This document shows positions 58,138 to 58,410 of a stretch of DNA of 64,000 nt, in pieces. The stretch's first letter is position 1. The number at the start of each line of letters is the position of its first letter. The notes beneath the pieces were generated by a model. It did not search any database and was not told the origin of the DNA. It saw only the letters and a program-made list of their open reading frames with translations. Source of the DNA: Patescibacteria group bacterium (GTDB taxonomy: Bacteria; Patescibacteriota; Saccharimonadia; UBA4664; SCTI01); contig SCTI01000002.1 of NCBI GenBank assembly GCA_004297735.1, positions 160 through 64,159 of the forward strand, read 5' to 3'. A program made the position numbers and the translations under genes.

Positions 58138-58410
58138 GGGGTCTCCTGTAGGTCCGACCTAGCAAAGGGTCGGACCTCTTATCTAGTGGGTAATCTTTTG
58201 TTAATCTAGCTTATTCGAGAAAGGTCGGACCCTTTGCTAGGTCGGACCCTAAACACACAAAACCTCTCGTCGGCAGGAGTCCAATGTGGACGGTTCCATC
58301 CTGCTTCCCGAGAGGGCACTTAATTCGCACTTTTTACGCCGTACTCGCGTCTGGTTCTACTTGGTCTAAACCGTTCTTCCAGCTGCTTCGCGGGTGATAA
58401 CCGCTCATGA
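58138..58410 (-). promoter_or_regulatory. ileS leader with T-box-like elements and a 26-bp inverted repeat next to the SD
   Basis: Minus strand: hairpin GCGG-UUAUCAC-CCGC (58404-58390) presents AUC followed by A. Helix GCAGGA (58304-58299), 7-nt bulge UGGAACC (58298-58292), GUCC-acauu-GGAC (58291-58279), UCCUGC (58278-58273). Arms 58248-58223 and 58176-58151 are complementary at 25 of 26 positions. SD AGGAGA lies at 58147-58142. Confidence 0.5.

Follow-up and report, generated by a model that had tools for sequence, protein, structure and literature searches.

A probable isoleucine-specific T-box with a nested terminator in the ileS leader of a Saccharibacteria lineage

What the long leader of ileS does is the question raised by the DNA analyzed here, a stretch of 64,000 nucleotides from contig SCTI01000002.1 that is referred to as the window. 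The leader is a 323-nt intergenic spacer (58460-58138, minus strand) located between yggT (58721-58461) and ileS (58137-55186), both of which are encoded on the minus strand. A first-pass annotation, made from the letters alone, had described a leader of ~320 nt with the geometry of a T-box antiterminator, an isoleucine codon displayed in a loop, and an inverted repeat gating the Shine-Dalgarno (SD) sequence; all sequence features listed there were found in place. Our analysis indicates that the segment at approximately 58437-58251 (minus strand) is probably an isoleucine-specific T-box of a Saccharibacteria lineage, which attenuates the transcription of ileS, and that the repeat is a secondary insertion. 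The leader folds far more stably than shuffled sequences (z = -6.9). The window genome was assigned to the Saccharibacteria (TM7), a lineage of the candidate phyla radiation (CPR), because of the relatives of its isoleucyl-tRNA synthetase (IleRS): the closest matches are metagenome-assembled genomes of Saccharimonadia/Saccharimonadales with 72-77% identity. The enzyme features the domains tRNA-synt_1, Anticodon_1, and DUF5915.

To define the family, the window leader was compared by BLAST with 80 ileS loci, one genome per species, which revealed conserved blocks at an equal distance upstream of ileS. The window leader and 19 relatives with a colinear element form the aligned family of 20 leaders; the T-box portion is conserved in 19-22 other genomes. 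The leader sits directly upstream of ileS in the window and occupies the same place in the 19 relatives. A profile hidden Markov model built from these relatives alone matched the window at 58407-58259 (minus strand) over the full profile length, with 93.2 bits and an E value of 3.6e-28, and this ileS leader was its single match in 64 kb. When the window sequence was included in the profile, three members were added, namely L021, L067 (Peregrinibacteria, E = 8.5e-15), and L061 (Peribacteria, E = 1.3e-6). The distribution of the element is patchy: inspection of the region upstream of ileS at 35 loci showed it at 19, or at 20 if the truncated 3' part in L023 is counted, and in L033, L002, L035, and L010 there is no leader element and yggT abuts ileS. 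At locus L021 (Saccharimonadia; 2-142 and 143-1326), T-box and terminator are present as well, and two extra genes, i.e., a small membrane-protein open reading frame (ORF) and a gene for a 337-aa protein, lie between them and ileS; judged from this arrangement, the riboswitch would control a three-gene unit there.

With the module definitions used for the T-box class (PMC7583486, PMC11297988), all modules were located in the window leader, as follows.

58390-58404, minus strand: ultrashort Stem I, GCGG-UUAUCAC-CCGC, with a 4-bp stem, a 7-nt loop, and no distal Stem I
58398-58396, minus strand: isoleucine specifier AUC in the terminal loop of Stem I, followed by A (58395)
58351-58382, minus strand: Stem II with S-turn (loop E), CUGG-AAGAAC-GGU...ACC-AAGUAGAA-CCAG
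58327-58349, minus strand: Stem IIA/B pseudoknot (H-type), with IIA CGC/GCG at 58349-58337 and GUAC (58344-58341) pairing with GUGC (58330-58327)
58305-58325, minus strand: 5' part of the discriminator, comprising the linker AAUUAAGUG (58325-58317; RAG/RRRxG), Stem III, and AA (58306-58305)
58316-58307, minus strand: mini Stem III, CCC-UCUC-GGG, 3 bp
58273-58304, minus strand: antiterminator element, with helix A1 (GCAGGA/UCCUGC), bulge UGGAACC (58298-58292), and helix A2 (GUCC-ACAUU-GGAC)

Each of these modules is supported by the family. As had been suggested for the window, the isoleucine codon AUC is presented in the terminal loop of Stem I; it is conserved in 20/20 leaders, and the next base is a purine (A or G) in all of them. 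The pairs of Stem I covary, for example by a change from C-G to U-A in seven sequences. In Stem II, GAAGAA faces AGUAGAA, with invariant A/GAA and AGUAGA columns; in the window, the S-turn strands GAAGAAC and AAGUAGAA flank covarying helices, and in the lower stem all four pairs show compensatory changes. The 3' side of IIA carries a sequence similar to the F-box, which reads GCGUAA in the window and CCGUAA or CCGUUA in the family. The IIB helix differs in sequence in almost every genome while its complementarity stays, as in GUAC/GUGC (window), ACUG/CAGU, CUCG/CGAG, CCGG/CCGG, and AAGAG/CUCUU; accordingly, the helix score was 10.4 for cognate and 7.0 for non-cognate strands, and 0 of 20,000 permutations scored as high. 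The AAG of the linker is invariant across the family, Stem III occurs in 15 of the 20 leaders, and the window sequence AAGUG-CCCUCUCGGG-AA fits the consensus 5'-RRRxG-Stem III-AA-3'.

The antiterminator read in the first-pass annotation as AGCAGGA/UGGAACC/GUCC-ACAUU-GGAC/UCCUGC (58305-58273) is borne out by the family as well: the UGG-N-ACC bulge is invariant except for N, and the pairs of A1 and A2 are 95-97.5% paired with compensatory changes. In the MAFFT alignment, Stem I, lower Stem II, A1, and A2 together are 97.5% paired, with changes on both sides in 15 of 18 pairs; none of 500 shuffles reached the observed values for pairing and covariation, and controls with slid strands were only 30-41% paired. 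RNAalifold found A1 and A2 independently, with compensatory changes in 10 of 11 pairs. The covariation analysis among relatives proposed at the outset therefore supports Stem I, Stem II, A1, and A2 alike. The window copy itself has 18 of 18 scored base pairs intact and retains every invariant position. With all modules present and backed by covariation, and with a relatives-only profile that hits the window, the T-box reading stands.

The antiterminator is flanked by what the first-pass annotation had recorded as an oddity, namely an outer helix plus T-run that looks like a terminator. The relevant elements are these.

58251-58315, minus strand: nested intrinsic terminator, with CCUCUCG (58315-58309) pairing with CGAGAGG (58269-58263), followed by the U-tract UUUUGUGUGUUU (58262-58251)
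58147-58143, minus strand: SD sequence AGGAG, read from the sequence
58137-58135, minus strand: ileS start codon ATG, read from the sequence

The outer helix is indeed present, and together with the U-tract it is the conserved expression platform. It encloses A1, the bulge, and A2, its 3' strand lying after A1. Its 5' strand is supplied by Stem III (loop plus 3' half); where Stem III is missing, as in five members, the RAG linker takes this role. A T-run beside the outer helix closes 20/20 aligned leaders, and the SD sequence follows ~5-25 nt further on in the 19 relatives. As the outer helix is not in register in the MAFFT alignment and the RNAalifold consensus, it was assessed by comparing cognate with non-cognate duplex energies; the means were -12.4 and -6.1 kcal/mol, respectively, and 0 of 20,000 permutations were as low. 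From the discriminator to the U-tract, the minimum free energy (MFE) structure of 19 of the 20 leaders is one long hairpin composed of the outer helix, A1, an unpaired 7-nt bulge, and A2, whereas a transcript ending after A1 folds into linker-Stem III-AA-A1/A2, i.e., the canonical discriminator. Mean fold energies were -20.5 kcal/mol for the pre-terminator form and -32.3 kcal/mol for the full-length form, so that the OFF state is more stable by 11.8 kcal/mol on average; for the window, the respective values were -16.2 and -26.3 kcal/mol. What the data show directly is thus the set of modules, covariation in each of the two alternative pairings, the overlap of these pairings, and the order of the predicted energies.

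In the canonical T-box, the terminator recruits the 3' strands of A1 and A2 as its own 5' strand (PMC7583486). Such a terminator strand was not found in the Saccharibacteria leaders, where A1 and A2 stay paired in 19 of the 20 and the terminator instead draws on Stem III (its 3' half) or on the linker. The two members from outside the Saccharibacteria identified with the profile do show the classical arrangement: at L067 (Peregrinibacteria, 3810-3955) and L061 (Peribacteria, 2272-2405), the terminators are built from the A1' and A2' strands. Since these two keep the classical form, the nested design appears, on sequence grounds, to be specific to Saccharibacteria and derived. In other respects the two leaders resemble the family, with an ultrashort Stem I with CUAUCAC loops, Stem III, and UGGUACC; the 5' strand of Stem II contains GAA in both, and the 3' motif AGUAGA is found in L067 only.

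From this overlap a mechanism can be proposed, in which tRNA binding, its exclusion of the outer helix, and termination at the U-tract are model predictions. During transcription, the discriminator (linker, Stem III, and A1/A2) would fold first. Uncharged tRNA-Ile would then pair through its GAU anticodon with AUC and through its 3' NCCA end with UGGN, which would dock the linker and stack Stem III under A1; docked in this way, Stem III and linker would bar invasion by the downstream strand, and RNA polymerase would pass the U-tract. If the tRNA were missing or charged, Stem III and linker would remain undocked and be caught by the downstream strand, giving a long hairpin that ends at the U-tract and stops transcription. 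The terminator would thus compete for Stem III and linker, not for the 3' strands of A1/A2. The proposal builds on the behavior reported for Stem III and linker: both are needed to bind the tRNA 3' end and undock on charged tRNA (PMC7583486, PMC12647780), and in the ileS T-box of Mycobacterium tuberculosis, charged tRNA undocks the linker and shifts Stem III off the antisequestrator (PMC12647780). That Saccharibacteria possess a T-box lineage which current models fail to detect and whose OFF state is capture of Stem III and linker around an intact A1/bulge/A2 has, in our estimate, about an even chance of being right. If it is, docking of Stem III and linker would be the natural readout of tRNA charging, as recent single-molecule work on M. 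tuberculosis proposed.

Several points weigh against an attenuating T-box in this place. Even at E values up to 10, an Rfam search of the window gave no T-box hit; the matches obtained at this threshold were only similar to microRNA precursors and were discarded, as they stem from the long hairpin that the inverted repeat forms. In the relatives, the T-box model RF00230 reached only 22.8-25.5 bits, far under its gathering score of 93. Stem III is missing altogether from five family members, and L044 possesses a separate terminator hairpin. Stem III of the window comprises 3 bp with an energy of -3.7 kcal/mol, compared with -12.5 kcal/mol for the outer helix; as it is far weaker, antitermination would have to be kinetic. 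Moreover, A1, bulge, and A2 are still folded in the modeled OFF form, so that tRNA binding and outer helix may not exclude each other. Finally, the fourth acceptor pair at the UGGA of the window would be mismatched if its tRNA-Ile has A73 or G73.

With respect to Rfam, the outcome was divided. At the gathering score, the whole window and 15 relatives yielded one tRNA and nothing else, and the check that had been suggested with RF00230 gave no hit in the window. In three relatives, however, RF00230 was the top Rfam hit, although sub-threshold (L012, 25.5 bits; L007, 24.6 bits; L003, 22.8 bits), and these alignments span the entire model, with strand and position both correct. The alignment of L003, the one inspected, mostly skips the distal Stem I of the model; the low scores are presumably explained by the missing long Stem I. 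RF00230 also aligns the Stem II region to the model's own GAA/AGUA. Lack of a T-box hit combined with lack of conservation of bulge and specifier hairpin had been named as grounds for abandoning the reading; there was no hit in the window, but bulge and specifier hairpin are strongly conserved.

The unusual bulge of the window raises the question of whether its T-box is still active. At position N of UGGN, 18 of the 19 aligned relatives have U and L001 has C, and A occurs in the window alone; L021, L067, and L061 likewise have U. According to TBDB, the usual pairing partner of N is the tRNA's discriminator base. One explanation would be decay, in which the change from UGGU to UGGA and a 99-nt insertion (described below) uncoupled ileS from the switch and left the leader as a constitutive leaky terminator and 5' untranslated region. 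The uniqueness of A among the 20 aligned leaders fits this idea, as do the restriction of the insertion to the window genome and the loss or lack of the leader in the close IleRS relatives L033, L002, L035, and L010, which indicates that the element is dispensable in this clade. Nevertheless, decay appears distinctly unlikely to us: in the window, the 18 of 18 base pairs and the invariant positions are intact, as are pseudoknot and Stem III; the profile score is 93 bits, and the insertion lies outside the switch. Furthermore, N may simply follow a different N73, as the discriminator of tRNA-Ile is not universal, given that tRNA-Ile of M. tuberculosis ends in GCCA (PMC12647780). UGGA could possibly report a tRNA-Ile with a U73 discriminator, a suggestion that comes from the bulge sequence; a search of the window and of 52 loci turned up no tRNA-Ile gene.

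If the T-box is active, it might still act at the level of translation, as in Actinobacteria, where the 3' strands of the antisequestrator sequester the SD sequence. In such a scheme, the 3' strands of A2 and A1 (...CAUUGGACUCCUG...) would pair with the SD-start region (CAGGAG...CC...AUG), alone or atop termination, and the repeat would join the two segments or gate the SD sequence. The complementarity of CUCCUG in A1 to CAGGAG at the SD sequence, already noted in the first pass, is present and above chance: in the window, the loop of A2 plus the 3' strand of A1 can pair with the SD-AUG region via CUCCUG/CAGGAG, GG/CC, and CAU/AUG at -13.1 kcal/mol, which beats 99% of shuffles; in L003, an even stronger equivalent (-25.5 kcal/mol) covers the SD sequence and the GUG start codon. 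The folded repeat would presumably also draw the 3' strand of A1 near the SD sequence. Across the family, however, this pairing is not conserved, cognate and non-cognate energies being -6.07 and -6.21 kcal/mol (permutation P = 0.60). The full-leader MFE structure keeps the terminator hairpin and does not form the sequestrator, the unpaired probabilities of the SD sequence are the same with or without the repeat, and the repeat is found in no relative; the T-run next to the outer helix at the end of all 20 aligned leaders also speaks for termination. A translational switch is therefore unlikely as the explanation, and SD pairing may at most be an auxiliary translational layer in some members, not the conserved mechanism.

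Attenuation at the nested terminator being the preferred reading, the inverted repeat between terminator and start codon has to be accounted for separately.

58151-58249, no strand assigned: palindromic insertion of 99 nt, flanked by TA at 58251-58250 and 58150-58149

Its arms, given previously as 26 nt, were found as 27 nt (58248-58222 and 58177-58151), 96% complementary and 44 nt apart. The repeat holds four GGTCSGACC palindromes, i.e., 9-bp dyads arranged in two pairs with 17-bp spacing; GGTCCGACC occurs five times in the window compared with an expectation of 0.35, and four of the five copies lie within the repeat. The full hairpin has a predicted energy of -52.7 kcal/mol, and the hairpins inside single arms have energies of -14.8 and -19.7 kcal/mol, the latter being the self-folding of the second arm that had been noticed before. 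None of the related leaders contains the repeat, and deletion of 58151-58249 together with one TA leaves UUUUGUGUGUUUACAGGAGACCCCAUG, which is colinear with L054 (UUUUUGUAUUUAAGGAGCCCCCAUG) and L003. Because the relatives lack it and the deletion restores their spacing between U-tract and SD sequence, we regard the repeat as a local insertion. The unpaired probabilities of SD sequence and AUG did not change with or without the repeat, so that it does not gate the SD sequence in the thermodynamic model; the arms thus exist, but a conserved SD gate they are not.

The best reading of the sequence is an insertion resembling a miniature inverted-repeat transposable element (MITE) or a repetitive extragenic palindromic (REP) element between terminator and SD sequence. 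Like these, the repeat is short, non-coding, and intergenic, with long terminal inverted arms and TA on both sides; it shows presence/absence polymorphism with a restored empty site, and many unrelated metagenomic contigs contain clusters of palindromic repeats that are likewise built around GGTCSGACC. Unlike typical MITE or REP elements, it is a single copy in 64 kb, a whole-element homologue was not found in the sets searched, its TA flanks are indistinguishable from an extension of the palindrome, and no transposase is linked to it. No second copy was found in the 64-kb window, the 80 related loci, or viral contigs.

Conversely, the repeat might be functional, either as an operator array, with its four GGTC-N-GACC dyads bound by a dimeric regulator, or as a stem cut by RNase III that separates riboswitch and mRNA. 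The motif resembles operators of the GntR/FadR type, the two pairs of 9-bp dyads with their 17-bp spacing adjoin the start codon, and a 27-bp RNA duplex would be a typical substrate of RNase III. We nevertheless judge a function of this kind improbable. The sequences separating the dyads are inverted copies of one another, a pattern that suggests duplication or inversion of a whole arm and not independent sites; the element occurs in no relative, and its flanks restore the ancestral spacing of U-tract and SD sequence. In addition, no regulator gene was identified alongside, and the two small ORFs upstream (see below) have no Pfam match. Taken alone, the inverted repeat is ordinary.

Further candidates for the repeat were tried and rejected. 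For a genome-wide repeat family, GGTCSGACC with one mismatch occurred at chance level outside the repeat in the 64-kb window, and the arm had no other copy there. A metagenome scan with GGTCSGACC-N8-GGTCSGACC returned more than 120 loci, which were unrelated hairpins and REP-like arrays with nothing but the GGTCSGACC core in common; none had the spacers of the window or the whole element. As for a promoter inside the repeat, inspection by eye found no pair of hexamers at a spacing of 16-18 nt. Judged by sequence, GGTCSGACC looks like a widespread REP-like motif. Repeats with this core were seen at metagenome loci L082-L201, in contigs with GC contents of 34-68% (for example, L115, 632-12083, and L201), with 17 copies in 14 kb at L119 (959-13174). 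The 26-mer GGTCGGACCCCGTACGGGGTCCGACC, located inside a larger ACCCCGCAC...GTGCGGGGT palindrome, is identical in 15 contigs of ~65% GC, and at L175 (46-413) it is part of a 175-bp tandem unit. Elsewhere in the window, at 19569-19732, two adjoining imperfect inverted repeats were noticed, with arms of 25-26 nt, loops of 14 nt, and 73-84% complementarity.

The T-box proposed here can be placed next to two known types. The comparison with the translational ileS T-boxes of Actinobacteria (M. tuberculosis, Nocardia farcinica, and M. smegmatis) draws on published descriptions. The resemblance to these ultrashort Stem I T-boxes, suggested already in the first pass, holds for the short Stem I whose terminal loop displays the AUC codon plus purine and extends to the gene and the type of IleRS, with its DUF5915 C-terminal domain; to the S-turn of Stem II; to a compact IIA/B pseudoknot with F-box (CCGUCA in N. 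farcinica; CCGUAA or GCGUAA here); and to the series of RAG/GAG linker, Stem III, A1, UGGN-ACC bulge, and A2. The actinobacterial elements, however, sequester the SD sequence via the 3' strands of the antisequestrator and have no terminator, whereas the Saccharibacteria leaders have a conserved U-tract terminator that encloses intact A1/A2, SD pairing is sporadic (window and L003), and most members carry an extra hairpin 5' of Stem I.

With the canonical transcriptional T-box (RF00230; Bacillus subtilis tyrS and glyQS), the family shares the logic of tRNA-dependent antitermination as far as the proposed mechanism goes, and also AGG(G/A)UGGNACC, a 7-nt bulge at the 5' edge by A1, Stem III-AA, and a U-tract terminator directly 5' of the SD sequence. 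It differs in lacking the long Stem I with its distal T-loops, AG bulge, and platform for the tRNA elbow, and in the terminator strand described above, which leaves A1/A2 paired. The nested terminator offers a natural test of which event operates the T-box switch: should capture of Stem III and linker suffice, this would support the view that charging is read via their docking, not via shearing of helix A1.

The T-box is generally assigned to the Firmicutes, the Actinobacteria, and a small number of neighboring phyla. Full-text searches of the literature collection used here retrieved no paper pairing a T-box with Saccharibacteria, Patescibacteria, or the candidate phyla radiation, and TBDB applied its translational ileS model to Actinobacteria genomes only. 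The T-box as a kind is well known; the lineage, its non-detection by the standard model, and a nested terminator competing for Stem III/linker appear to be new. What emerges is a covariation-supported family of ileS T-boxes in Saccharibacteria with relatives in Peregrinibacteria and Peribacteria, all of which Rfam misses at the gathering score. As the leaders of L067 and L061 match the family profile, T-boxes seem, from sequence, to be broader in the CPR than Saccharibacteria alone. For annotation, this indicates that feedback at the RNA level on an essential synthetase has been retained in the reduced genomes of the CPR. Actinobacteria are the usual hosts of Saccharibacteria, and the ultrashort Stem I common to both raises the question of common ancestry versus horizontal transfer.

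Two further features were located at the 5' end of the leader.

58444-58472, minus strand: candidate leader promoter, with -35 hexamer TTGCTA (58472-58467), a 17-nt spacer, and -10 hexamer TATTGT (58449-58444)
58409-58420, minus strand: 5' hairpin GAACC-UC-GGUUC, abutting Stem I on its 5' side

TTGCTA/TATTGT is a candidate for the promoter of the leader, proposed from its sequence and position. It scored 8/12, which is under the threshold of the consensus scan, and the scan made no call there; most relatives have a -10 hexamer of the (T)GGTAT type at a similar distance 5' of Stem I, even where the upstream gene differs. A hairpin abutting Stem I on the 5' side was present in approximately 16 of the 20 family members by our own count of the folds, without conservation of its sequence, and is not mentioned in the T-box descriptions consulted (PMC7583486, PMC11297988). 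It may be part of the fold or, possibly, a stabilizer of the 5' end. Attenuation by a leader peptide was also considered and dismissed: the sole small ORF of the leader (24 codons, by eye) has no isoleucine codon.

Regarding the gene neighborhood, the order ...-yggT-ileS recalls the sepF-ylmG-...-divIVA-ileS cluster of Gram-positive bacteria. Upstream of yggT, two small ORFs of 114 and 106 aa (58726-59387, minus strand) without Pfam match were found. The exact look-up of the YggT protein gave as its sole match a 19.8-kb Logan contig (L081; SRR8426595, contig 12865), which is identical to the window across 5588 nt including leader and insertion. At the other end of ileS, 11 nt past the stop codon, a perfect 16-bp palindrome, CTAAAAAACCGGCCAT-A-ATGGCCGGTTTTTTAG, plus a T-run (55143-55175) looks, by its sequence, like a bidirectional intrinsic terminator; this palindrome with its T-run indicates that the window genome uses hairpin-plus-U terminators. 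Convergent on the 3' end of ileS is the gene of a large serine recombinase of 577 aa (53269-55002, plus strand) with Resolvase, Recombinase, and Zn_ribbon_recom domains, which may mark an integrated mobile element or a prophage boundary beside ileS. Farther upstream of the leader, at 59765-62782, the window encodes a ribonucleotide reductase of class II that carries a TSCPD domain.

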